A DNA stretch of 64,000 bases from a bacterium (GTDB taxonomy: Bacteria > Patescibacteriota > Minisyncoccia > Phycocordibacterales > UBA9973). The stretch lies in NCBI GenBank assembly GCA_037130335.1, contig JBAXTD010000001.1:103419-167418 (forward strand). Direction: 5' to 3'. The notes under the pieces are model-generated. The model made no database searches, had not been told where the DNA came from, and worked only from the letters and a program-made list of their open reading frames with translations. The position numbers and the translations under genes were made by a program. Positions 29,942-45,392 of the stretch are shown here, one piece after another; position 1 is the first letter of the stretch, and the number at the start of each line of letters is the position of its first letter.

Positions 29942-31405
29942 TTGTGTATGATTTCTCAAAAAAATACTATTGAAAATTTAGAAGATTCTTTTGTTGTCGA
30001 AGGCGCAGAAATTGAATCTGTGCCGACTGTTGAAATAAAAACCGGAGGACAGCTCTTTGTAAATGGAGTACCTTTTAGTGAATACGGTCGTGTGAGTTAT
30101 GGCCACAAGCAACGAGATGGCGTGTTTGGTTTTCATGATGACTTTGATAACAAAAATTTTATTGATCCACGAAATCCCGCAAAGGTTTTCCCGTCAATCC
30201 GTGTAGATGCTAATCGAAATGTCTTTGTAAAAGATTTTCACTGGGATTCTTTGCTCGGCAAAAAGTTTATTGGAAATGGCTATTTGGCATTTGTTGATCC
30301 GATTACTGAAAGCATTGTGTTTAAAACATTTACGACAAACAACGAAAAAGACCAAAGTGAAGTTGTGGTCAATAATGTTTCTTGGAAAAACAAATTCGCA
30401 AATATCATTTCAGTTGAGAGTTACAAAAATGTTGTTCTCGCGCTTGCTGAAAAGGAGCTCGCAAAAGTTGGTTTGTTTGTAAACGACAAGGAATGGAGTT
30501 GGCCTGCATACCAAGATCTTGAAATTCGAAAAGCAGAACGATTTCGCGATGCTACGACAAACGGATCGGGAACAGTTGTAGCCATTGTTACGTCGCAGCG
30601 TTCAGGCAAAGTTGCCGAGCATGTGTTTGTGGGGGATTATCATTCTGCAAAAAAGGAATGGAGAACATCGTTTGATTTAGTTCGAGAAGAAAATCCACAT
30701 CATGTTGCGGTTGATAAAAACTCTGACACAGTTGCTGTGGTGGGTACGATTGATGGATTTCCTACGCTCGTAGTAGATGACATTGTCTGCAAACTCAGTT
30801 CGCACCCGCATCGAGTTGAAAAACTTGCTGTCGAGAATGGTGTGGTATCGATACAATATATTGATGCAGTTGGAAAGCGTTTTGCAGAAAAAGTTTCTCT
30901 TGTTGAAAATGCGTATCAAATTCAAATGCATAAACAAGAGGCAGAACGCAATGAGGAGGCACTTCATTTACTTCGTCGATTATTGCACGAGGTCAATATT
31001 AAACCACATCAAGTTGTTGATATTTTGATTAAACACGACGATCTAAAAAATCAATTTGAAATTGTAAAACAAAAAGCCGAAGAAGTATGGCCAATAAAAA
31101 ATACAAATAACGTATTGATTTCTGAAAAAGAATTTCTTGCGCGAAATCTCGAAAATGAGAGATCAAAGAATGCTGCACTTGAGCGCAAGATTTCTGACAT
31201 GAATGAAATGATTGAAAAAGTAAAATCAGTGCTTGATGAAAACAAGCCAACAAAAGGTGTACTCAGCGATAAGTCAAAAATTAAAAAAGATGTATATGAT
31301 GTTTTGTGTACAACTGTTGGATATAAACAAAAAGAACAAATGACTCAAAACAAAGAATCAAAGAAACAAAAACCCTCAAACGATATCGCATTACTTAGTT
31401 TTTAG
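29942..31405 (+). CDS. Hypothetical protein with a C-terminal coiled coil.
   Basis: 487 aa, no recognised domain. Confidence 0.5.
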   Translation: MCMISQKNTIENLEDSFVVEGAEIESVPTVEIKTGGQLFVNGVPFSEYGRVSYGHKQRDGVFGFHDDFDNKNFIDPRNPAKVFPSIRVDANRNVFVKDFHWDSLLGKKFIGNGYLAFVDPITESIVFKTFTTNNEKDQSEVVVNNVSWKNKFANIISVESYKNVVLALAEKELAKVGLFVNDKEWSWPAYQDLEIRKAERFRDATTNGSGTVVAIVTSQRSGKVAEHVFVGDYHSAKKEWRTSFDLVREENPHHVAVDKNSDTVAVVGTIDGFPTLVVDDIVCKLSSHPHRVEKLAVENGVVSIQYIDAVGKRFAEKVSLVENAYQIQMHKQEAERNEEALHLLRRLLHEVNIKPHQVVDILIKHDDLKNQFEIVKQKAEEVWPIKNTNNVLISEKEFLARNLENERSKNAALERKISDMNEMIEKVKSVLDENKPTKGVLSDKSKIKKDVYDVLCTTVGYKQKEQMTQNKESKKQKPSNDIALLSF

Positions 31406-31522: not shown

Positions 31523-31692
31523 GGTCTCCGGTAGCTCGTATGAGCGCCATTTTATATCAAAGAGCCGACACAGGGAGCGATACCGATATAAAATTTCCAA
31601 ACATTGAAAAATTAATAGAGTATATAGAGTACTACGTTTTATTTTGTTCCGTTTATATTCCAGTTTTATGAAATTTTAATTTTGTAAATTTT

Positions 31693-33314
<1,622 letters not shown>

Positions 33315-33570
33315 ATTGAATTCTGTTTCATTTTCCTATTTATAGGGCTTTGAAATTTAGTGCGTCGATTTTTTGTGCCTCAATTGAGCACAAAAAGGTT
33401 TAGTAGGCACCTACAACTATTTGGCAGTTTGGAAAGACAAACAGGTAAGAATATTAAACGGAACAAAATATAGCGCATCACTCACATATACAAAAACAAA
33501 AAATAACATCCAAAACATTGGGTGATTTTTTGTATTTCATATAGCAAAAATATGTAGTGCGTGTTACAGT

Positions 33571-34797: not shown

Positions 34798-36732
34798 TTA
34801 ATGATGCGCATCCATTCCGCTCGGTTTTTTGGCCTTAGAAATTCTGCGGATTGTAAGTATGACTGCAAGGATTATAAGGATTGTCACCAGCCATCCAATG
34901 ACTGTAGTTGGGAAAAATCCAGAACCGAGTGCAAATCCACCGAGTGAACTTACACCACCTGATGCATGATTGAGTACGTATCCCACGGAACTATCTTTTA
35001 CGCCGTTTGGATATGTGAATGAAAGTGAGCCATTGGTTACAAGTGTGTTTGTGAGCGATACACCACTTCCAACTTTAGCTTGCATAAATATTGAACCAGC
35101 ATATCCTGGAGCGAGTGTTTTGAGATCAGCGGTTACTAGTGTGGGTGATGTTATTTGTCCTGTGGTTATTTGAGTAACAGTAAAACCTTGAGGTAATGAG
35201 ATGTTCAAGACTACATTTTTTAATGCCTTTGTTGTGTTGTTTTTGTAATCAATTTTATATTCAACTGTTTCGCCAATTGCCACCTTATCGTTTGTATTTG
35301 TAATGGATAAAAACACGCCAGTCGCTGGATTTGCTATTGCATTTTGGGTTGCAGATGTGTTTGTTGTGTTTGAACTTTGTGCGTATACCGTTGTATCGTT
35401 TTCACCTTTGGATACAAATGACATAATATCTCCACGTGAAATTACTCCGTTTGATTCTGTTACTGCACGATAGTAATAGGTGGTTGAAGGTGTGGTATAC
35501 ATTACTGCATTAAATCCAGAAGTTACTTGTCCTGAAAAGTTTTGTTTTGATGTATTTGAACCCATACTTGTATCAACACCATATTCAAACCATGCATTTG
35601 TCGGGTAGTATGTTCGCACAAGGATTCCATTTAATTTTGCAGAGTAAGGTCCGACATTTGTTGCAATACTTGTGATTGCGTTTGAACCACTACTGTTTTG
35701 TGAATTGTTGTATGAGTATGATCCACCGGTTACATAAATTGTAAGTGGTGGCCATGTAGTAGAATTATTTCCGTTTGCTGTGAGTATAAGGTCCGTTGTT
35801 CCATAAATTGGATTTGTTTGGATACTTCCATTCGCTGAAAGATAATATCCGTTTGAGATGCTTCCATTTGCTGAAGTGATAGAAACGCTTGAGCATCCAA
35901 CTGTAGACCATGAGAGATGTGTTGTTTGTCCGCTTGAAATATATGTTGGTGATGCAGTAAAGTTTGTTACGACACAATTATCACTACTGTTTCCGTAGTT
36001 GTAATTATAATATGAGTTATTTACTGATACGGTAACTTGTTTGGTTTGGTTGATTCCGTTAAAGTCTGTTGCGGTTAGTGTATATACAACACTTGAGACA
36101 AACGGACCAACATTCATATTTGAAACATTTGCTTGATTATTAAAAAATACTCCATTGTTTCCAGAAATTGAAACATTCGTACATCCAGATGATGTGTTCC
36201 AATCGAGCGTTACATATTGTCCTGTTGTAACTTGAACATAGTTTGAACCATTTGCGTTAAATGAATATAGTTGGCATGTTGAGCTAGTCCCCAAAGTGGT
36301 TTTGGTCATATTTATCGTAAGTGCTTTTTGAGAAATTGTTCCGTTTGCATCTTTTCCGACAAGTATAAATGATGTTGTTCTACCGATCGGTACAGTTTCA
36401 ATAGACGTTTTACCTGCAACTGATGTATCCGAAAAAGCTTGATCAGAACTTGAAAGTAAGAGAGTTGTACAGTTTGATTGTGTCCATGAAAGTGTTGCAA
36501 TGCCCCATTCGGCAACAGTGTTTCCTGGTGCATTGCTTGTCAGTGTGTCGACACTACATGCTGGTGTTGAAATGGTGGGAATTTCGTTTACTACATAATT
36601 GTTATTTTGATTAGTTGTCGTTGGACTGCCGACCGTAAGTGCTTTTGAAACTATAGGGAAATAAAAAACAACAAGCGCAAAAAAGAAAAGCGCTGATCGT
36701 AACACGTATGATGATGAGATATTTTTTTTCAT
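34798..36732 (-). CDS. Large cell-surface protein: signal peptide, Ser/Thr/Asn-rich beta repeats, C-terminal TM plus basic tail.
   Basis: 644 aa. N-terminal signal anchor. C-terminus is GWLVTILIILAVILTIRRISKAKK with no canonical LPXTG. Confidence 0.6.
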   Translation of the reverse strand: MKKNISSSYVLRSALFFFALVVFYFPIVSKALTVGSPTTTNQNNNYVVNEIPTISTPACSVDTLTSNAPGNTVAEWGIATLSWTQSNCTTLLLSSSDQAFSDTSVAGKTSIETVPIGRTTSFILVGKDANGTISQKALTINMTKTTLGTSSTCQLYSFNANGSNYVQVTTGQYVTLDWNTSSGCTNVSISGNNGVFFNNQANVSNMNVGPFVSSVVYTLTATDFNGINQTKQVTVSVNNSYYNYNYGNSSDNCVVTNFTASPTYISSGQTTHLSWSTVGCSSVSITSANGSISNGYYLSANGSIQTNPIYGTTDLILTANGNNSTTWPPLTIYVTGGSYSYNNSQNSSGSNAITSIATNVGPYSAKLNGILVRTYYPTNAWFEYGVDTSMGSNTSKQNFSGQVTSGFNAVMYTTPSTTYYYRAVTESNGVISRGDIMSFVSKGENDTTVYAQSSNTTNTSATQNAIANPATGVFLSITNTNDKVAIGETVEYKIDYKNNTTKALKNVVLNISLPQGFTVTQITTGQITSPTLVTADLKTLAPGYAGSIFMQAKVGSGVSLTNTLVTNGSLSFTYPNGVKDSSVGYVLNHASGGVSSLGGFALGSGFFPTTVIGWLVTILIILAVILTIRRISKAKKPSGMDAHH

Positions 36733-36821: not shown

Positions 36822-37232
36822 TTTGTTCCGATTGGATGATCGCGCAAAATTTATTTTGTGAGGAAAGTCCGAACACGCAGCTCTGGGCGGATTTTTTGAA
36901 AAAAACTTTTTTTCAAAAAATCCGCCCAGAATTAAACGTAGTGGGTAATTCCCATCGTCCGCGAGGATAGCGGTGCGAGCAGTGACGCTTTGAGGCGAAA
37001 GCCAAAAAGCACCCCGAATTTTTGGGCTTGCCCAAAAATTCGGGGTGAATTCCTCTGGAAACCTAGGAAGTGAAACGGCAAAATCCGTACGCGCGTGCAA
37101 GATCGTGTTCGGGCGGCCCCGCTTTGCGGGGCCGCCCGAAAGAATCGCTCGAGGATAGAGGTAACTCTATTCCCAGATAAATGATCATCGTCTCGCAAGA
37201 GATACAAAATTCGGCTTATAGGTCGGAACACT
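36822..37232 (+). ncRNA. rnpB: RNase P RNA (bacterial type A).
   Basis: P4 5' strand gaggaaagtccgaacac. 3' region agataaatgatcatcgtctcgcaagagatacaaaattcggcttataggtcgg matches the E. coli AGAUGAAUGACUGUCCACGACAGAACCCGGCUUAUCGGUCAG. P1 pairing is tgttccgattgg / taggtcggaaca. gtgaaacggcaaaatccgtacg is a P10-12 analogue. Confidence 0.85.
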
Positions 37233-37240
37233 GAAATATG

Positions 37241-37406: not shown

Positions 37407-38936
37407 ATGAAAAAGTTAATTACTTTTATGGCATTAATCGCCATCGCAATTTGCGCAAAAGCGCACAATGTTATTCCAGTATCTTCTGTAAAGATGCCTG
37501 GAGCATTAACAGCAGTTGTTACTGTAAAAAAGGATACCACAGTGGTTCCTATTTCAGATTCACTATGGTACAGAGTTTTAATTTATGCTGACTCTAATCT
37601 TACTGGTACGCCAATAAGTGGGCCGTGGGATTCAGGTACTGTTTACATGTTCACTAAGACAGTGCCGATACCTGACACTATATGCTGCGCTATGGTCATA
37701 GAAACAAAGCATCGGGATACAATAACCCATGCTCTGGTTTCAGATGTGTCGCATTTTGTGATAATGAGTAAACCACCTACTGGATCTGTTACGTATACGG
37801 TATCAACGGATTCTATTTATTACAACCTTAATGTAAAAGGGGGAAATAATAATGGAGTTCCGGTGCTAATTGAAGCGTTTACGGATACTACATGTATGTG
37901 GGCTTTTGGTTCAAGTACAATGTACTACGTAAGCGGTCCGAGTAATTTTAACTTTACTGGGGCTGTTAGAGCTCATTTTTATTCAGGTATGTCTTATTGC
38001 ATTCGAATTACGGTAACTAATCCAGTAACCGGAGTTAAGGTGTTAAAACAAATCGTAACTACTGCTACTCCATTTACAACATTGCCATACGTTGAGCTTT
38101 CCAGCCCAACCACGGCAACTGATACGTCAGTAAATATTTTTATCGGATTAAATTGTTTCAGCAGGAAATCCCTCGATACTTTGTATTTAAGGGACAGCAC
38201 TGAGGTCACCTGGTCTCGTGTGATTCCAATCAGCAATTTATTCGATACAACAATTACTGGGTTACAGACACAGACTGTACATGTGGGTGGATTACATCCA
38301 TCACATACGTATTTATACGATGTGAAAGTAAAAAATATCGTTGGTCCGACGTTATTAGGCACGCAACGTATCCAAACATTGGATACACCTGTGTTTACAG
38401 GTAGTACCAATACATTTGCGTTGCTGTCTGTGAACGCCACATATAACGCAATGGCCGATAGTATTATTTACAATGTTTATGTAGGCAATGTTGTTGGTGG
38501 TACATCAACAATTAATGCTGTGTTGGATAAAGCTGGAAGTGTGATTTACTCAATAATGCCTGTGACTAAATCAGGTCATGGTATTGTGCGGGTTGCTTTC
38601 CCAGTATCTGGTGATACAGGAAATTTTCAAGTGTACGCATGGAGTTATGATGACTTAGGATCTACGGACTCAACTGGAAGTTATGTTGCGTACACGTCAC
38701 ATGTTCCAGTTCACGTTCCAGGTAAAAATACAACTGGAATATTAGATGTTACTGAAAACAAAAATTTACACGGCTGTGTAAATTTCTATTCAGAAATTGG
38801 GGAAGTTGTTGGAAAATATAAATGTACGTTTGGAGAAATTAATATGATTGCTCCTAATAATAAATTTATTATTTATGAATTCATCTCCGATGACGGTCAG
38901 TTTACTAATCGCCAAAAAATCTTTGTCCAAAGATAA
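37407..38936 (+). CDS. Secreted Thr/Val-rich beta-rich protein (Ig/FN3-like repeats likely).
   Basis: Signal peptide followed by 490 aa of low-charge, Thr/Ser/Val-rich sequence. Confidence 0.5.
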   Translation: MKKLITFMALIAIAICAKAHNVIPVSSVKMPGALTAVVTVKKDTTVVPISDSLWYRVLIYADSNLTGTPISGPWDSGTVYMFTKTVPIPDTICCAMVIETKHRDTITHALVSDVSHFVIMSKPPTGSVTYTVSTDSIYYNLNVKGGNNNGVPVLIEAFTDTTCMWAFGSSTMYYVSGPSNFNFTGAVRAHFYSGMSYCIRITVTNPVTGVKVLKQIVTTATPFTTLPYVELSSPTTATDTSVNIFIGLNCFSRKSLDTLYLRDSTEVTWSRVIPISNLFDTTITGLQTQTVHVGGLHPSHTYLYDVKVKNIVGPTLLGTQRIQTLDTPVFTGSTNTFALLSVNATYNAMADSIIYNVYVGNVVGGTSTINAVLDKAGSVIYSIMPVTKSGHGIVRVAFPVSGDTGNFQVYAWSYDDLGSTDSTGSYVAYTSHVPVHVPGKNTTGILDVTENKNLHGCVNFYSEIGEVVGKYKCTFGEINMIAPNNKFIIYEFISDDGQFTNRQKIFVQR

Positions 38937-39630
38937 AAATAATAAATGGACGCATCATAATAGCTTCGACTTTCTTAAATGAAAGCCGGAGCTATTTTTT
39001 TTTATTCTATTTTTATAGTATCTAATTTACTAGACACATTTTTTATATTTGATATACTCTCTGTGTGAGTATGGTTCTCCAATGAATTATTACAAACAAT
39101 TGCCTACGCAAGGCCCGCCTCACGGCGGGTTTTGTGCTTTTGGGAGAGATGGTATATACTCTAAGTACGTTCCCACATATCGTGGTGAACGTCTCCACTC
39201 ACATAGGCAATTGTGTTGGAGTTCGGACACGCTCACCACAATGTGTGGAAGCAAAACAAAAAATCGTTCATCGAAAGATGAGCGATTTTTTGTTTCTAAT
39301 TTTTTAATAGTATTAAACATAATTTTGTGAATATAATTTTGCGTAATAAAAAAAATTTTTGAAAAATAAAAATAAATTAATTAAAAAAATAAAATAAAAT
39401 AAAAAAACTTTTTCAAAAAAATATTTTTTATTTTATTTTTAAAAAAGTTTTCCACATATTTCGTAAAAAATAATTGCGAATAATTTTTGATTGTAGGATA
39501 ATTACTGTAGTTGCGATTTGATTAGTGCGCAAAAATTTTTTGGAAAAATATTTTTTAAATTTATTTTCAAAAAAAGTTGCGCGGTCGAAATCAAACGCCA
39601 CTTAATAAAAATAATAAACTCAAAAATTTT

Positions 39631-39702
39631 ATGGCAGCAAAAAAGAAAGCAAAAAAGGCAGCACCAAAAAAGAAGGTTGCAGCAAAAAAGAAGCGAGCAT
39701 AG
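39631..39702 (+). CDS. Candidate micro-protein, 23 aa, Lys/Ala-rich (MAAKKKAKKAAPKKKVAAKKKRA).
   Basis: ATG-initiated ORF followed immediately by two hairpin terminators (39722-39755, 39766-39784). Too short for the ORF track. Confidence 0.35.
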   Translation: MAAKKKAKKAAPKKKVAAKKKRA

Positions 39703-39721
39703 TTTTATTTGTTCCGCTCAA

Positions 39722-39755
39722 GAAAACAACTCCTCACGGAGTTGTTTTCTTTTGG
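39722..39755 (+). terminator. Rho-independent terminator after the micro-ORF.
   Basis: gaaaacaactcctcacggagttgttttc followed by ttttgg. Confidence 0.6.
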
Positions 39756-39823
39756 GGCGGGTTTTCGCGAAGCGAAAACCCGCCATTCCAAAAACCTTCT
39801 TTTTGTGCTAGAATTAAGGTCTT

Positions 39824-42337
39824 ATGGCTATATTACAGAATCTTTTTGGAGATAGTAAAATGAAGTTTGCAAACAGTGTAAAAGCGGTTGTGGCAGAAGT
39901 TGCATCATATGAAGACGAGCTCAAAACCCTTGAGGATACTGTATTTCCCGAAAAAACAGCAAATTTAAAACTACGATATAAAAACGGAGAAACGCTAGAC
40001 CAATTATTACCCGAAGCATTTGCGCTTGTGCGTGAAGCATCACGTCGTGCTATTGGTCAACGTCATTACGATGTACAAATTATTGGAGGTATTGCACTTC
40101 ATCGAGGCAACATTGCAGAGATGCGCACCGGTGAAGGAAAGACATTGGTAGCAACGCTTCCAGTGTATCTCAATGCGCTTGCTGGACGTGGCGTGCACGT
40201 CGTGACTGTGAATGATTATCTTTCACGTCGTGATGCGGTATGGATGAGTCAGGTGTATCATTTCCTCGGACTTTCTGTGGGTGTAATTAATTCACAAAAT
40301 ATTTCCTATGTATATGATCCTACACACACCGAAAAGCAAACTGAACAAGAAGGAGTTTCTGTATACAAAGTTGTATATGATTTTTTGCGACCATCATCGA
40401 GACGTGATGCATACAACGCAGATATTACGTATGGTACAAATAATGAATATGGTTTTGATTATTTGCGCGACAATTTAGCAACACATGCAGAAAATTTAGT
40501 TCAACGTGATCACTTTTTTGCTGTTGTAGATGAAATCGATTCAATTTTGATTGATGAAGCACGTACACCACTTATTGTTTCTTCTGATTCAGAAGAGTCA
40601 GGAAGTTTTTATAAAACATTTTCTGATATTGCTTCGCAAATGATTGCAGAAGAAGATTTTACTGTAGATGAAAAACGCAAAGCAATTTCGCTTACTGATG
40701 CAGGAATTTCAAAAGCAGAAGCAAAACTTGATATCAGTAATATTTACACCGAAAAAGGAATCAAATATGTTCATCATCTCGAAACCGCAGTGCGTGCAAA
40801 GGCATTGTTTATTCGCGATCGAGATTATGTTGTCAAAGATGGTGAGGTAATCATCGTCGACCCATTTACTGGACGTATGCAGCCGGGTCGTCGTTGGAAT
40901 GAAGGCTTGCATCAAGCAATCGAAGCCAAAGAAAGTGTAAAGATTCAAAAAGAAACTCGCACGAGTGCATCGATTACATTTCAAAATTATTTTAAATTCT
41001 ACGAGAAGCTTTGTGGAATGACAGGAACTGCACAAACAAGTGATGAAGAATTCCGTAAAGTATATGGCTTAACTGTTGCAGTAATTCCAACTCATCGCGA
41101 AATCAAACGTGTTGATCACAATGATTTAATTTTTCAAACAGAAAAGGGTAAATGGCAGGCGATTGCGCGCGAAGTCAAAGCTCGTCACGAAAAAGGTCAG
41201 CCAGTACTTATCGGTACGATTTCAATTGAACGCAATGAATTACTCTCTGCGTATTTGCGTGATGCAGGTGTGCCACATACGCTCCTTAATGCCAAGAACC
41301 ACGAAAAGGAAGGTGAGTTGATTGCTCAAGCAGGTAAGCGTGGAGCAGTAACTGTGGCGACAAACATGGCTGGACGTGGAATTGATATTATTTTAGGTGG
41401 TGTGCCAGCAACCGATGAATCAAAAGAAGAAATCCGTGCGCTTGGTGGATTGTATGTGCTGGGAACAGAACGTCACGAGGCACGTCGTATCGACAATCAG
41501 CTTCGCGGACGCGCAGGACGTCAGGGTGATCCAGGCGAGACACAATTTTTTGTTTCGCTCGAAGACGATCTCATGCGTGTGTTTGGATCTGACCGTATCA
41601 AAAACATGATGGGACGTTTTGGAATTCCAGAAGACCAACCAATCGAAAACAGCATGATTACAAGTGCACTTGAAACTGCTCAGAAAAAAATCGAAGGATT
41701 TCATTTCGATGCTCGTAAATACACACTCGAATACGACAACGTGCTTTCACATCAGCGTGGAATTATTTATTCTCGTCGTCGTACAATGCTTCTTTCCAAA
41801 AAGGAGGACATGCAGACATATCTCGATCAATTCATTGGCGTAGATTCACACGTCGCCACTCTCGTTTCTCAAAAACGAGCGGCATTTGGTGATGATGCGT
41901 TCTTTGAAACATTTCGTCGAATTGTGTTGTTTGTCACTGATACACTGTGGATTGAACATCTCGAGACAATGGAATATTTGCGTTCATCGGTAAATTTGCG
42001 TGCATATGGTGGACGCGAACCGCTTGTCGAGTATCAACGTGAAGGTTTGCGATTATTCAAAGATTTGGAAGCAAGTTTCCGTGAACAAGTAATTGATTTG
42101 GTTGAAAAAATGTCTGAGCAACCCGTGATGCAAAACACACCAATCGAAATTCCCACACCACAAACATTCACTGCAACTCACATGGAACCAGAGGAACTAA
42201 CCGGCAAAGTGGAAAAGAATTCTCCACTCGCACAAAATAATTCTCAATCAAAATCAGAATCAAAAGTAGGTAGAAACGACCCATGTCCATGCGGTAGCGG
42301 CAAAAAATACAAGAAGTGTCATATGAATGGGAACTAG
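39824..42337 (+). CDS. secA: Preprotein translocase ATPase SecA.
   Basis: N-terminus MAILQNLFGD...EMRTGEGKTLVATLP (Walker A), DEAD-like VDEIDSILIDEARTPLI, C-terminal zinc finger CPCGSGKKYKKCH. The last five codons lie inside the attL repeat. Confidence 0.95.
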   Translation: MAILQNLFGDSKMKFANSVKAVVAEVASYEDELKTLEDTVFPEKTANLKLRYKNGETLDQLLPEAFALVREASRRAIGQRHYDVQIIGGIALHRGNIAEMRTGEGKTLVATLPVYLNALAGRGVHVVTVNDYLSRRDAVWMSQVYHFLGLSVGVINSQNISYVYDPTHTEKQTEQEGVSVYKVVYDFLRPSSRRDAYNADITYGTNNEYGFDYLRDNLATHAENLVQRDHFFAVVDEIDSILIDEARTPLIVSSDSEESGSFYKTFSDIASQMIAEEDFTVDEKRKAISLTDAGISKAEAKLDISNIYTEKGIKYVHHLETAVRAKALFIRDRDYVVKDGEVIIVDPFTGRMQPGRRWNEGLHQAIEAKESVKIQKETRTSASITFQNYFKFYEKLCGMTGTAQTSDEEFRKVYGLTVAVIPTHREIKRVDHNDLIFQTEKGKWQAIAREVKARHEKGQPVLIGTISIERNELLSAYLRDAGVPHTLLNAKNHEKEGELIAQAGKRGAVTVATNMAGRGIDIILGGVPATDESKEEIRALGGLYVLGTERHEARRIDNQLRGRAGRQGDPGETQFFVSLEDDLMRVFGSDRIKNMMGRFGIPEDQPIENSMITSALETAQKKIEGFHFDARKYTLEYDNVLSHQRGIIYSRRRTMLLSKKEDMQTYLDQFIGVDSHVATLVSQKRAAFGDDAFFETFRRIVLFVTDTLWIEHLETMEYLRSSVNLRAYGGREPLVEYQREGLRLFKDLEASFREQVIDLVEKMSEQPVMQNTPIEIPTPQTFTATHMEPEELTGKVEKNSPLAQNNSQSKSESKVGRNDPCPCGSGKKYKKCHMNGN

Positions 42338-43914
42338 AAAATAAAGTCGATTTCTACCTTGTTGTCTCCGGCTCGAATCTCCTTGATAATACTGCGTAAA
42401 ATCATCTTTTTCTCATCCAGTTCCATCTTGTCCCAGCAGGCATCAAAATCCTTCAAAGAGGCCACTAATTTGCGTGTTACAGCCACTTTCTGTGCGGTAG
42501 TGGTTGAGAGTAGAGATAAGCGTTCCACCTCCACACGGCTTTTTTGGATTTCCTGCCTAATCCTTGAAATATGCGCATCCAGTTGCTCCAAGGTTTCGAC
42601 TCCTTTTTCATAAGCTTCTTGATGTCGTTGCTCTCTGGCTGGACCTGATTCAATATCTCGGTTTAATCGAGCAATCGTTTTTTCTCTGTCATTTTCTTCC
42701 TGGTTGCCAGCCGTATAAGTTATATTTTCTTGGACCTTGGGGTGCGAATACAGATTTTTTATATGATCCAAAACTGCGCCTTCCAACTTGTCGGCACTCA
42801 TCACTCTTTGAGAGCAAATGCCTTTGTATTTGTATCCCGTGCAGATATATTCAAAAGTCGTTGTATCTTTCCATTTTGGATTTTTGTCAGATCTCTTGTG
42901 GCGACGTTTTTGATAGCCAACGCCGCTCTTGCAGCGGATGCATTTTGCAATTCCGGTGAGAACCCCTAGGGACCTCCCAGCTCCGCCTTTTGCGTGCTTG
43001 GTCCTCCCAGCTCTAATTTCTTTGACGAGGTTAAAAATAGTTTCGTCTACGATGGGGGAGTGTTCGCCATTTCCCACATACCCAACCTTGCCACGTCTCT
43101 GCCATTCCTTATTTTTCTTGTAGTCGGCATGTCTCCAGCCCCACCACACTTTGCCTGTGTATGTCGGATTGGCCAAAATATATCTGATGGTTTGGATACT
43201 CCAATTTATTCCATTGGGAGCGCTCCATCCCTTTTTATTCATTTCGATCGCTATTTTTCTGTCGCCATTGCCCCGAGCATATTCATTGAAGATAAAGCGG
43301 ATTTTCTGCGCTTCATCCTCGTCAACGATGACCGTCCTTTTTATTTTATTACCCTCCAGTGTTCTTACGACTTTGTATCCGTAGGGCACGCGGTTTGGTA
43401 TTTTCCCTTCTTTCGCCTTTATCATTTTTCCGCCCTTCATTCGACGATTGATGGCCGTTCGTTCGAGATCGGCTTTCATGTCTGAGATTGTCTCCATGAT
43501 CGTCGCCGAATCATTGTCGTCTGGGTCGTACTCGCTGACCGACTTTGGCTCGACAGGGGTGTTGATCGAGTAGGTTTGAATCCCGAGCCCTTTTAGTTCT
43601 TGCCGGATGATGGCGGCCGCATCTTTGTTTCTGGCAAATCTGTCATAATCCTTTACTATGATGAGGTCAAATTTATGTTCTCGCGCATCCCGCATCATGG
43701 ACTGCAATCCATGTCGCTCCTCCGTCAAATGACCGCTCACTCCTTCGTCTGTGTATTCCTGAAAAAATATCCATCCCTTTTCAAGTATCACCTTGTGGCA
43801 ATCTCTAATTTGCTGGGGGATTGAAGTTTTTTTCTGAGCTTGCTCTTGAGTACTCACTCTTCCATACGGAGCGACTCTCAAGCTCGTATTCACTGCACCT
43901 GCATTTCTATCCAT
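42334..43914 (-). CDS. Large serine recombinase.
   Basis: N-terminal resolvase domain with the catalytic Ser in YGRVSTQEQ, plus a recombinase domain, Cys-rich zinc ribbon (CIRCKSG...C) and C-terminal coiled coil. Its stop overlaps the secA stop by 2 nt. Confidence 0.8.
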   Translation of the reverse strand: MDRNAGAVNTSLRVAPYGRVSTQEQAQKKTSIPQQIRDCHKVILEKGWIFFQEYTDEGVSGHLTEERHGLQSMMRDAREHKFDLIIVKDYDRFARNKDAAAIIRQELKGLGIQTYSINTPVEPKSVSEYDPDDNDSATIMETISDMKADLERTAINRRMKGGKMIKAKEGKIPNRVPYGYKVVRTLEGNKIKRTVIVDEDEAQKIRFIFNEYARGNGDRKIAIEMNKKGWSAPNGINWSIQTIRYILANPTYTGKVWWGWRHADYKKNKEWQRRGKVGYVGNGEHSPIVDETIFNLVKEIRAGRTKHAKGGAGRSLGVLTGIAKCIRCKSGVGYQKRRHKRSDKNPKWKDTTTFEYICTGYKYKGICSQRVMSADKLEGAVLDHIKNLYSHPKVQENITYTAGNQEENDREKTIARLNRDIESGPAREQRHQEAYEKGVETLEQLDAHISRIRQEIQKSRVEVERLSLLSTTTAQKVAVTRKLVASLKDFDACWDKMELDEKKMILRSIIKEIRAGDNKVEIDFIF

Positions 43915-44092: not shown

Positions 44093-44296
44093 TTAAGCCT
44101 CTTTTTGGAGCTCTCTTTGGACGATTTTGTTGATAAGACTAGGCATCAATAGAGACAATTTTTCAGCAAGAGAGTCAACGTCCGTGCCAGCAAAAAATAC
44201 ATCCACAGATGGTCCGCTCTCATCATTGGTCGTATTCTTTTTGGCTGGTACGATTGAGGTCATGTAAGTGTTACTTGTCCTATTTATTTCTTGCAA
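44093..44296 (-). CDS. Hypothetical small protein (67 aa).
   Basis: ORF overlapping the integrase 3' end by 17 nt. No domain. Confidence 0.25.
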   Translation of the reverse strand: MQEINRTSNTYMTSIVPAKKNTTNDESGPSVDVFFAGTDVDSLAEKLSLLMPSLINKIVQRELQKEA

Positions 44297-45392
44297 GAAT
44301 GTCTCGAAAAACCCGAAGTTCTTCTTCGGTCAGGGAACCGTCCTTGTGTTCTCCTTGTGAATTCTTCAGGCTTTTGACGATTCTGATGGCCTCGTTCGCG
44401 GTCATGTTGCCGTACCCATACGAACCGAATGTCGTGGCGACATCTTCGTGTCCCAAGTTGAGGCTGACTGCCTTCTTTTCCTCCTCGGTCAGTCGCTTCT
44501 TGCTCACGATTGCCACCGCCAAATTCCTGAACGAGTGTGGATGATAGTAAGGCATACCGGCTGAGAGGTATCGTTTCTGGAGAATCTTCCGCGCCGATCC
44601 GGAACTGCTCCAAAAATCTGTACCGATCGTTCCTCTGCTGTAAGCGCTCTCGCCAGTTTCAAGATCATTCTGTGTTGTAGGGAAAATCGGATCGTCCGGT
44701 CCGAAGCTCTTCGACTCCAGATATTCGTACCACTCCACGAAGTACCGCTCCGGGTCGTCCCAGCCGAGAGGGAAAAACGTACACAGGATACGTTTCGAGC
44801 TTTTGGTTTTGACGCCGTCCGCGGGGTTCTGGTCGATAACTTTTTCCTGTTTATCAAAACTCTTCATCTTGAGCGTAATGATTGCCGAAATGCGGGCACC
44901 TACCGTAAAGGCAAAACAGATGAGCGCTCGATCGCGCATGTCTATCTCATTTTTGATTTCAATGCCCTCTATGAGCTTCCGGATTTCCTCGAATGTGGGA
45001 ATCTTTTTGGTTGTGCTCTGTCGGGCGATGCGAGTATCCTTTTTGGAAAGACGTAAGTATTCAATATCGCCTTTTGCCATCTTGCTTTTGTACCCTGGCT
45101 GGTCGGAGAGCCATTCGAAAAACTTCTTTACACGGCGGAGATAGTTGTATCGGGTGACAATAGCGATTTTTCCCGTCGGAGTTTTTGACGATTTTGTCTC
45201 AAGCCACTCGACGAACGCCGTCGCCTTCATTTTGTTGAAATTGGCGAAGTCCTCGTTCCCTGTAAAAAGTTGCCACTTGGCAATCGCTCCAGCAAAGACG
45301 AGGATAGAGCCCTTGGTGAACCCTCGGGCACCCAGGAGTTGCTCTAAAAAGTCCCGCTTCGCCTTTTCATTTTCGTATGGTATGTCTGTCAT
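44280..45392 (-). CDS. Tyrosine recombinase / phage-type integrase.
   Basis: SAM-like N-domain. Catalytic R...HPHSFRN...LGHEDVATTFGSYGY (R, HxxR, Y). Confidence 0.8.
   Translation of the reverse strand: MTDIPYENEKAKRDFLEQLLGARGFTKGSILVFAGAIAKWQLFTGNEDFANFNKMKATAFVEWLETKSSKTPTGKIAIVTRYNYLRRVKKFFEWLSDQPGYKSKMAKGDIEYLRLSKKDTRIARQSTTKKIPTFEEIRKLIEGIEIKNEIDMRDRALICFAFTVGARISAIITLKMKSFDKQEKVIDQNPADGVKTKSSKRILCTFFPLGWDDPERYFVEWYEYLESKSFGPDDPIFPTTQNDLETGESAYSRGTIGTDFWSSSGSARKILQKRYLSAGMPYYHPHSFRNLAVAIVSKKRLTEEEKKAVSLNLGHEDVATTFGSYGYGNMTANEAIRIVKSLKNSQGEHKDGSLTEEELRVFRDILARNK

Follow-up and report, generated by a model that had tools for sequence, protein, structure and literature searches.

The 887-bp gap that precedes secA in a 64,000-nucleotide stretch of contig JBAXTD010000001.1 (GenBank assembly GCA_037130335.1; hereafter the window, meaning the whole stretch) is probably a compact island of three independent, unannotated transcription units with strong signals, which to judge from its sequence has been kept across the Paceibacteria (Parcubacteria/'Nomurabacteria'). 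Two of the units are predicted to specify small RNAs, RNA1 and RNA2, that can pair with each other through segments that co-evolve; the third is a micro-open reading frame (micro-ORF) for a lysine-rich peptide of 23 amino acids (aa), with a conserved DnaA-type box at its promoter.

The gap lies between a 509-aa ORF that ends at 38936 and secA (39824-42337), which carries the full set of SecA Pfam domains, and there is no ORF of at least 100 aa between the two. The closest relatives of this secA in a species-level genome collection are metagenome-assembled genomes (MAGs) labelled Candidatus Nomurabacteria, Paceibacterota or Parcubacteria, with 55-82% identity, so we take the host to be a Paceibacteria-type bacterium of the candidate phyla radiation (CPR). 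The comparison set comprised 80 related secA loci and 103 metagenome loci recovered with the RNA2 loop as the only seed, 183 loci altogether; related loci are cited by L-numbers, L182 being the closest relative of the window.

The original prediction, made from the sequence of the window, had described this gap as non-coding, with a possible structured RNA in a GC-richer segment and a lysine-rich micro-ORF, and had set beforehand, as its test, a search for conservation in relatives. In that search both the RNA region and the reading frame turned out to be kept. The term non-coding has to be dropped, because the gap holds a coding gene, the micro-ORF at 39631-39702. Segment 39060-39295 is indeed GC-richer than its surroundings, with 44% GC against 10% in 39296-39473; the AT content of 39330-39600, put at more than 85%, measures 82.3%, and only 39296-39473 reaches 90%. 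This AT-rich stretch appears to be in part an unconserved spacer (39296..39446, unstranded, containing tracts of A and of T and lying ahead of the promoter for the peptide gene, indel-rich and unconserved relative to L182) and in part the promoter and leader of the peptide gene.

Two predicted small RNAs and their pairing

Segment 39040-39295 folds with -104 kcal/mol (z = -8.2 against shuffles), and more than 130 related loci keep the RNA region, on the + strand, with both its sequence and its structure. Together with a promoter and a terminator, this bears out the proposal of an unannotated structured small RNA (sRNA), refined here to two mutually pairing RNAs. A promoter and intrinsic terminator, conserved sequence and structure, and strand specificity are the predicted properties that the region shares with generic trans-acting sRNA genes.

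RNA1 is predicted to be ~75 nt long (39065..39140, + strand) and is conserved by both nhmmer and blastn. Its near-consensus promoter, TAGACA - 16 nt - TG-n-TATACT (39031..39058, + strand), has a promoter-scan score of 10/12; relatives show TTGACA/TTGACT - 17 nt - TGCTATACT at this position, and in homologues RNA1 starts ~7 nt downstream of TTGACA-17-TGCTATACT. On the + strand, three segments complementary to the RNA2 loop follow each other, namely a (GUGAGU, 39065-70) at the 5' end, e (CUCCAAU, 39077-83), with an AU-rich linker downstream, and b (ACAAUUGCCUA, 39096-106), and the RNA closes with P3 (39107-36), a terminator-like hairpin with a covarying stem and a U tract. Homologues share this layout, with 5'-GUGAG(U), a (C/U)UCCAA(U/C) motif, an AU-rich linker or hairpin, a variable b of 10-12 nt and P3, whose stem covaries among relatives (CAAUAAA…UUUAUUG, GAAGAAA…UUUCUUC) and also shows compensatory changes relative to L182. 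By blastn and nhmmer, ~30 of the 80 loci have a match to the RNA region upstream of secA; its orientation with respect to secA can be either one, which marks it as an independent gene.

RNA2 is predicted to be a long hairpin of ~85 nt (39169..39252, + strand) with a ~30-bp covarying stem. Of the two stable hairpins first proposed, gcccgcc-tcac-ggcgggtttt is present as such at 39113-39133, in RNA1, whereas ccacaatgtgtgg is the 3' strand of the long RNA2 stem. RNAalifold finds 26 pairs in RNA2, 21 of them with compensatory changes, and the minimum free energy is -39.7 kcal/mol (z = -5.8). With the RNA2 covariance model (R1), the + strand of the window reaches 82.6 bits (E = 4e-21) and 32 of the 80 loci are recovered; the minus strand of relatives, where it scores at all, scores far lower (for example, 35 versus 94 bits), and the minus strand of the window has no match to the model at E <= 1. 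Over 88 nt RNA2 is 100% identical to that of L182, with diverged flanks and scrambled spacers, and both terminators differ from those of L182 by compensatory changes.

The apical loop of RNA2 (39195-39221, CACUCACAUAGGCAAUUGUGUUGGAG) is 27 nt long, nearly invariant as (G/C)C(A/G)CUCAC-AU-d-GUUGGAG, and probably the functional surface of the molecule. It is made up, on the + strand, of segments c (ACUCAC, 39197-202), d (UAGGCAAUUGU, 39204-14) and f (GUUGGAG, 39215-21). In the upper stem (39184-39196 with 39222-39233) a C-C mismatch recurs one step below the loop-closing UGC/GCA pairs, as judged by eye in a few relatives (e.g. L012, L007), and might serve for recognition by a protein. Every locus has a TATAAT-like box, in many cases with TG, 6-10 nt ahead of the RNA2 stem (TATACT at 39155..39160, + strand, in the window), and the box is present even where RNA2 directly follows a protein gene without an intervening RNA1. 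The clean terminator aaaaaatcgttcatcgaaagatgagcgatttttt recognized at the outset is present, scored as an intrinsic terminator at 39254..39295 (+ strand; 19 pairs, then a T run) whose structure is kept in L182; of 105 copies of RNA2, ~95 end in a terminator.

Segments a, e and b of RNA1 together pair with the whole 27-nt loop of RNA2, with many compensatory changes across ~75 distinct RNA1/RNA2 pairs, and the segment order is permuted, a, e, b in RNA1 facing c, d, f in RNA2. The b-d duplex is contiguous, with 10-14 bp, in every locus holding both RNAs, and at least ten different compensated sequences fill it, as in ACAAAUGCCU/AGGCAUUUGU, ACAAUUGCCU/AGGCAAUUGU (the window), ACAAAUGACUA/UAGUCAUUUGU, ACAAUUGCAUA/UAUGCAAUUGU, ACACAAGUGCUU/AAGCACUUGUGU, UCUAAAUGUCUU/AAGACAUUUAGA and CUAUGUC/GACAUAG across lineages. 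In e-f, where e pairs with GUUGGAG, the variants are wobble-compatible only (CUCUGAU, UUCCGAU, CUUCAAU and others), apart from UCCCAAU with GUUGGGG; in a-c, the 5' GUGAG forms five invariant pairs with CUCAC; L095 has GUGAGCG facing CGCUCAC, and in L084 the register is shifted to GAGUGC with GCACUC. A formal count over 52 distinct RNA1/RNA2 pairs and the 18 base pairs of e-f and b-d gave 97.9% paired, with five pairs changed on both sides. None of 500 shuffles matched the observed percentage paired, the pairs or cells changed on both sides, or the covariation score, and slid controls reached 30-49% paired.

As a mechanism, RNA1 would be the dedicated partner of RNA2, and its single-stranded b would probably pair first with the loop centre d, after which e and a would pair with the flanks f and c. 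We infer that RNA1 in this way masks or completes the entire RNA2 loop, in the manner of an sRNA and its anti-sRNA or of a two-piece RNA.

The metagenome scan seeded with the RNA2 loop alone offers an unbiased view of how these genes travel together. The lysine-rich micro-ORF and secA are both present in 67 of its 103 loci, which argues that the module is real and no artefact of locus choice; among the remaining loci listed, most are short contigs (a few kb) or carry RNA2 close to a contig end. Two arrangements occur, one in which the ORF comes 300-500 nt downstream of RNA2 with secA after it, and one in which RNA2 and the ORF-secA group are divergent.

We treat RNA1 and RNA2 as two units rather than one on the strength of a -10 box for each, the occurrence of RNA2 alone and the variable spacer. 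It is unlikely, in our judgement, that they form a single ~230-nt pseudoknotted transcript running through P3, or an extremely divergent or split form of signal recognition particle (SRP) RNA, 6S RNA or transfer-messenger RNA (tmRNA). Such a reading would accommodate the fact that, when both are present, RNA1 and RNA2 are always on the same strand with RNA1 first, and that the pair adjoins secA among housekeeping RNA genes; the lack of a canonical SRP RNA or tmRNA in 1.36 Mb of relatives could also be cited for it, but is uninformative at that sampling. P3, however, combines a canonical GC hairpin with a U tract just after it, RNA2 carries a -10 box of its own and lacks an RNA1 within 400 nt in ~30 copies, and the spacer is unconserved, with insertions of 0 to ~120 nt among the homologues printed and 70-314 nt from the end of b to the loop core.

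Nor do database comparisons favour a known housekeeping RNA. An Rfam scan, proposed along with the sRNA, returned for 38850-39900 at E <= 10 sub-threshold matches to unrelated families only, well below gathering and mostly to terminator hairpins, and at E <= 1 the RNA pair of six homologous loci gave the same sort of matches; in the window and these six relatives there is no Rfam family for RNA1, RNA2 or the peptide-gene leader, as fits an unannotated sRNA. Neither RNA has the SRP helix 8 with GNAR tetraloop and the symmetric and asymmetric GGAAG(C/G)AGC loops to which Ffh binds, the helix-8 motif GGAAGCAGC is absent from both, and a fuzzy search for it (<=3 mismatches) found none in the window or the fetched loci. 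ARAGORN found no tmRNA in the window, in 28 homologous loci or in all 183 loci, and the conserved parts of RNA1 and RNA2 contain no T-loop, CCA end or tag ORF. 6S RNA was rejected as an identity of RNA2, which at ~85 nt is half the 6S size (~180 nt) and has small internal mismatches only, with no large central bubble of the sort by which 6S RNA imitates an open promoter; the Rfam 6S models were silent on 38850-39900.

A micro-ORF under coding selection

The ATG at 39631 opens, as first described, MAAKKKAKKAAPKKKVAAKKKRA*, a frame of 23 codons on the + strand that ends at 39702 and contains 11 Lys and 1 Arg and no acidic residue. ORFs of 19-58 aa that begin MAAKKK… are found in 53 of the 80 related secA loci (54 counting the window), and the family consists of 50% K, 27% A and 5% R, with no D or E. 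Across relatives the MAAKKK start, the frame and the stop followed by a terminator are kept, and most changes are synonymous ones at third positions: in 11 equal-length ORF pairs the differences at codon positions 1/2/3 number 28/49/100, the window and L078 differ by eight synonymous codons and one non-synonymous, and L036 and L051 by seven and none. The micro-ORF thus reads as a real protein-coding gene with the features of a micro-protein, and the tiny polycationic peptide first suggested is upheld.

Of the two terminator hairpins announced downstream of the ORF, the first is an intrinsic terminator (39714..39760, + strand; -28.2 kcal/mol, z = -7.4; a stem, then UUUUCUUUU), and every relative listed has a GC-rich hairpin and T run ~15-40 nt after the stop codon. 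The second (39752..39791, + strand) is a window-specific extra GC-rich hairpin without a U tract, missing from L182; the 72-nt stretch that holds it, 39752-39823, folds with -32 kcal/mol (z = -4.9). Between the stop codon and the terminator (39703-39720 in the window) a motif CCCACUUA(C/A)GAA recurs in many relatives, and a similar C(C/U)NCUUA follows the peptide-gene leader helix.

Promoter, DnaA-type box and leader of the peptide gene

The DnaA-box-like 9-mer singled out earlier, TTTTCCACA, is found at 39448-39456, one mismatch away from TTATCCACA, and comparison refines it to a conserved promoter element, a putative operator of DnaA-box type (GTTTTCCACA, 39447..39456, + strand; GTTATCCACA in relatives). 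All 52 loci with enough sequence have such a box, usually a perfect TTATCCACA, in the same orientation and 16-18 nt upstream of the -35 element. In ~720 kb of related loci there are 64 perfect TTATCCACA boxes against 5.5 expected, 45 of them at this promoter position, and several of the remainder lie upstream of secA in loci where the ORF filter found no micro-ORF. DnaA-like boxes within the window are at chance level (20 found, 21 expected), so the significance of the box comes only from the comparison with relatives. The match to the 9-mer and its conserved position and orientation are what a DnaA-box operator would be expected to show.

The promoter itself, TTGCGA - 17 nt - GATAAT (39474..39502, + strand), was found by promoter scan and is conserved, ATTGCG/ATTGTG and (G)GATAAT/CATACT being kept in relatives. 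With the box centred near -58 of this sigma-70-type promoter, DnaA would bind there, and transcription of the peptide gene, into a predicted monocistronic mRNA, would probably be tied to DnaA, that is, to replication status.

The same box could in principle belong to a replication origin, or to a DnaA-titrating or -reactivating site (datA, DARS), with the ORF incidental. A conserved and, in relatives, perfect box adjoining a stretch of 90% AT would suit such a site, but GC skew is positive throughout the 64 kb, without a change of sign at 39 kb, and ten dnaA- or dnaN-sized ORFs tested include neither gene. Moreover, a single box per locus is found in the 330 nt searched (except in L060), at a fixed helical distance from the -35 and -10 elements, the AT stretch is unconserved and the ORF is under coding selection. 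We regard this possibility as extremely unlikely. The lack of a skew switch and of dnaA or dnaN among the tested ORFs speaks for a putative operator rather than an origin. An assignment to oriC was rejected on these two grounds, the single box and the chance-level box density.

Between promoter and ORF lies a structured 5' leader of ~120 nt (39509..39630, + strand; window fold z = -2.9). Its outer helix (39510-23 with 39588-601) encloses an AT-rich inner hairpin, GGUCG (39583-87) stands directly 5' of the returning helix strand, and an unstructured A/U-rich stretch leads to the AUG. Of 54 loci, 53 have GGTCG at 37-85 nt upstream of the ATG; the background frequency of the motif is 0.0007 per nt. 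The helix differs in sequence between lineages, with an AT-rich hairpin inserted in one group; in an anchored helix test, cognate arms reach 9 bp in 41% of cases versus 10% for non-cognate arms, and a simple longest-duplex test was weak, given the AT-rich background. GGUCG is absent from the 16S rRNA of the window, and a role as rRNA mimic was rejected with that absence and with the finding that the GGUCG of RNase P RNA is ordinary P1/P2 sequence. The leader helix would present the invariant GGUCG, probably a site of post-transcriptional feedback or processing.

No Shine-Dalgarno sequence precedes the ATG of the micro-ORF, as would be normal for this lineage. GGAG, GAGG or AGGA occurs within 20 nt upstream of only 2 of 53 window ORFs (background 7.5%), the 3' end of the 16S rRNA (33270-33316) ends ...GGAUUACUUCAAAU without the canonical anti-Shine-Dalgarno CCUCC, as in L020 (2470-2495), and many window ORFs have a TAnAAT box right before the ATG. 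Taken together, these observations make the lineage appear Shine-Dalgarno-independent, with mRNAs that are often leaderless, and translation of the peptide would start accordingly.

A small ORF adjoining small RNAs also recalls type I toxin-antitoxin modules, in which the sRNAs would repress the small-peptide mRNA. In one clade (L011, L012, L020, L083, L093, L102, L113, L130, L158 and L165) the peptide mRNA starts with GUGUGAGUGUGA, which resembles the 5' end of RNA1 and can form duplexes of -20 to -25 kcal/mol with its complement in the RNA2 loop, CACUCACA; the window and its close relatives do not show this leader start. That complementarity is the further point in favour of a toxin-antitoxin module, but it is confined to the one clade and absent in the window, and the duplex of RNA1 with the mRNA (-17.9 kcal/mol) is no better than shuffles (-16.7 kcal/mol). 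As the peptide is not hydrophobic and the module, in contrast to typical toxin-antitoxin loci, occurs in single copy, in synteny and throughout the class, the idea verges on the implausible.

What the peptide may do

The peptide family has left little trace in databases. Searches with five peptides gave sub-threshold, compositional matches only (Pfam HC2, E = 0.28; NCBIfam H1-like, E = 0.08), a PDB profile search with the family gave nothing at E <= 10, and the family profile, run against a collection of 5.8 billion protein clusters, yielded no significant match among 8000 word-sharing candidates. None of ten family members had an exact match in the protein collection, which suggests that gene callers miss the peptide gene. 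Membership among histone H1-like/Hc2 proteins or known ribosomal micro-proteins was rejected, there being no significant similarity in Pfam, NCBIfam, PDB or the large protein collection.

Association of the peptide with the ribosome or with nucleic acid, as first suggested, is a reasonable inference, and by analogy with known tiny polycationic proteins the peptide probably binds nucleic acid. Most likely it would act as a counter-ion and compaction factor on DNA and/or rRNA, neutralizing or compacting them somewhat as a histone H1 tail does; the A/K-rich extension of Parcubacterial uS19 (PMC9297842) fits this reading too.

A serious alternative, if a somewhat unlikely one, is that the peptide belongs to the ribosome, as a new protein specific to the lineage and comparable to bTHX, bS22/bL37 or eL41, with the GGUCG leader as an rRNA-mimic autogenous operator. 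The peptide is tiny and extremely basic, has strong expression signals and a structured leader of the kind typical for ribosomal-protein operons, and its gene shares an island with those of 16S rRNA and RNase P RNA; the C-terminal tail of Parcubacterial uS19 is likewise A/K-rich (PMC9297842). On the other side, its length (19-58 aa) and repeat number vary freely, which would be unusual for a fixed rRNA pocket, the 16S rRNA of the window has no GGUCG, and the peptide resembles no PDB chain. To our knowledge, moreover, DnaA-box control has not been described for ribosomal-protein genes.

Relation to secA

secA seems to be transcribed from its own promoter, downstream of the peptide gene. An extended -10 element, TGcTAGAAT, can be read at 39806..39814 (+ strand), and with the ATG at 39824 it implies a nearly leaderless secA mRNA; in relatives, TGnTA(A/T)AAT boxes stand directly after the peptide-gene terminator, a few nt before the secA ATG. 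In 39 of 52 loci the micro-ORF and secA share a strand, with the ORF no more than 400 nt upstream (median 124 nt); in 13 loci it is 0.4-2 kb away, and in 2 it is inverted. Some loci depart from this layout. L084 (minus strand) has an RNA2 without terminator that ends 12 nt before the secA ATG and so forms its 5' UTR (untranslated region), which hints at a link to secA expression, and no lysine-rich ORF was detected in that 14.8-kb contig; in L156, RNA2 is followed by a terminator, a promoter and secA, and the lysine-rich ORF is again missing.

This proximity raises the question of a regulatory upstream ORF (uORF) of the SecM kind, in which stalling on poly-Lys codons would control read-through of the terminator into secA. 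Besides the short distance and shared strand in those 39 loci, a stop codon ~15 nt from the terminator would suit attenuation, and poly-lysine stretches are described as slowing ribosomes (PMC9207662). However, the relatives listed have a complete intrinsic terminator after the ORF, secA comes with a TGnTAnAAT box of its own, and the ORF with a separate DnaA-box promoter and leader; the ORF lacks any signal or transmembrane (hydrophobic) segment by which secretion could be sensed, and its length and repeats vary. The 13 loci with a distant ORF, the two with an inverted one, and secA without the ORF in L084 and L156 are equally hard to reconcile with such control, and we consider it very unlikely. 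Classification as SecM-like was rejected given the intervening terminator and separate secA -10, the lack of a hydrophobic segment and the variable linkage to secA. A further candidate, targeting by RNA1 e of the UUGGAG in the first secA codons, was rejected as an artefact of Phe-Gly-Asp codons, unconserved at the nucleotide level.

Genomic neighbourhood

At gathering threshold, Rfam finds in the whole window a 16S rRNA (31691-33316), an RNase P RNA (36824-37234) and nothing else, and ARAGORN finds neither tRNA nor tmRNA in it. The gap therefore sits inside a small island of housekeeping RNA genes, and the neighbours in L020 (16S, sRNA region, RNase P, micro-ORF, secA) match those of the window. 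The RNase P RNA (class A), which scores 109.5 bits against a gathering score of 100 and has large insertions and deletions relative to the model, appears to be a divergent CPR form. Two ORFs on the + strand, the one of 509 aa just before the gap (37407-38936) and one of 487 aa before the 16S gene (29942-31405), have no Pfam match; a 644-aa ORF on the minus strand (34798-36732) has a DUF11 repeat, which suggests a surface protein. Directly 3' of secA, a block from 42334 to ~54000 has a GC content of 0.43-0.45 against ~0.36. Its first genes encode a large serine recombinase (42334-43914, minus) and a tyrosine integrase (44280-45392, minus), and the block probably represents a mobile element that has integrated here.

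Strength and meaning of the proposal

The genes and their signals, the pairing of RNA1 with RNA2, the coding selection and the conservation of the DnaA box and GGUCG stand, in our view, as demonstrated by comparison across loci. Several points nevertheless weigh against the proposal of three conserved units and the functions attached to it. The case for transcription, translation and DnaA binding is built on sequence signals and conservation. Next to about 30% of RNA2 copies there is no RNA1, which may thus not be obligatory, and the fusion of RNA2 to secA as a 5' UTR in L084 hints at a cis role outside the model. As regards the pairing, the segments in the formal count were chosen by best fit and so lean towards structure, a-c is almost invariant and leaves little room for a covariation test, RNAalifold predicts a rival cis pairing of c with UGGAG inside RNA2, and the three helices may be unable to form simultaneously on a closed loop. 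The peptide is of low complexity and out of reach of homology searches, which makes any target of it a guess.

The RNA and peptide families are absent from Rfam, Pfam and NCBIfam, and full-text literature searches turned up no description of these elements in CPR bacteria, the only related note being that on the A/K-rich uS19 tail. Small RNAs, micro-proteins and DnaA operators are known kinds of element; the three-segment permuted pairing and a poly-Lys peptide driven from a DnaA-box promoter are unusual variants of them. We put forward tentatively, as a single joint possibility, that they make up a previously unseen core module of the Paceibacteria. In it, a DnaA-controlled, highly expressed poly-Lys/Ala micro-protein would be the main nucleic-acid counter-ion, as a protamine- or H1-tail-like chromatin peptide, or a new ribosomal component, and a class-wide RNA1-RNA2 complex would have a housekeeping function tied to the secA, rRNA and RNase P locus.

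CPR/Patescibacteria genomes are tiny, known mostly from metagenomes and annotated almost wholly by homology, and genes of fewer than 30 codons and lineage-specific RNAs escape such annotation. Here one intergenic gap yielded a co-evolving sRNA pair, a micro-protein that is half lysine and a DnaA-box promoter outside any origin, all three kept class-wide and accompanied by clear signals for expression. Should the peptide prove to be a component of chromatin or the ribosome, it would give a new picture of how nucleic acids are neutralized and organized in minimal cells, and the DnaA regulon would gain a member. We know of no regulatory RNA described in this lineage; RNA1 and RNA2 offer a clean and testable example of RNA-RNA co-evolution, and the covariance model and sequence patterns could serve to annotate these genes in many more MAGs.

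Comparison with known systems

The RNA pair is reminiscent of two groups of systems. Small RNAs with a sponge or anti-sRNA (GcvB-SroC, the ChiX-chb decoy) and antisense kissing pairs (CopA-CopT, RNA I-RNA II) share with it a hairpin loop, offered here by RNA2, that meets a single-stranded complement, in RNA1, in loop-first pairing that then extends, and a promoter and terminator for each partner. Unlike in these systems, the RNA1 and RNA2 genes are in tandem on the same strand and not antisense, three permuted segments of RNA1 cover the whole RNA2 loop, the central helix co-evolves freely between invariant flanks, and the pair is kept class-wide in a housekeeping locus, with no mRNA target known. 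Two-piece functional RNAs, such as the two-piece tmRNA of alpha-proteobacteria and the U4/U6 small nuclear RNAs, are likewise joined by several intermolecular helices separated by a hairpin. RNA1 and RNA2 differ from two-piece tmRNA in having no tRNA-like end or tag ORF, with ARAGORN and Rfam negative, and in coming from separate promoters rather than one processed precursor, RNA2 also occurring without RNA1.

Upstream-ORF systems of secretion genes (SecM, MifM, VemP) likewise place a small ORF immediately upstream of the secretion gene, on the same strand, as the micro-ORF is placed before secA. Here, unlike there, a terminator and a separate secA promoter intervene, the linkage is not obligatory, and the micro-ORF has neither an export signal nor a conserved arrest motif. 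DnaA-regulated promoters, among them those of dnaA and nrdAB in E. coli and of sda and dnaA in B. subtilis, resemble the peptide-gene promoter in having the consensus 9-mer TTATCCACA at a fixed position by a sigma-70-type promoter away from oriC; the peptide gene differs in its single putative box near -58 and in encoding a micro-protein. Among tiny polycationic proteins, finally, the ribosomal bTHX, bS22/bL37 and eL41, the H1-like Hc2, the Burkholderia H1-like proteins and the A/K-rich tail of Parcubacterial uS19 are the nearest in kind, and with them the peptide shares its small size, extreme Lys/Arg/Ala content and (A/V/T)KK-type repeats. It is set apart from them as a stand-alone product of 19-58 aa with no detectable homology to Hc2, H1-like proteins or PDB chains, with a variable number of repeats and expressed, as predicted, from a DnaA-box promoter through a GGUCG leader.

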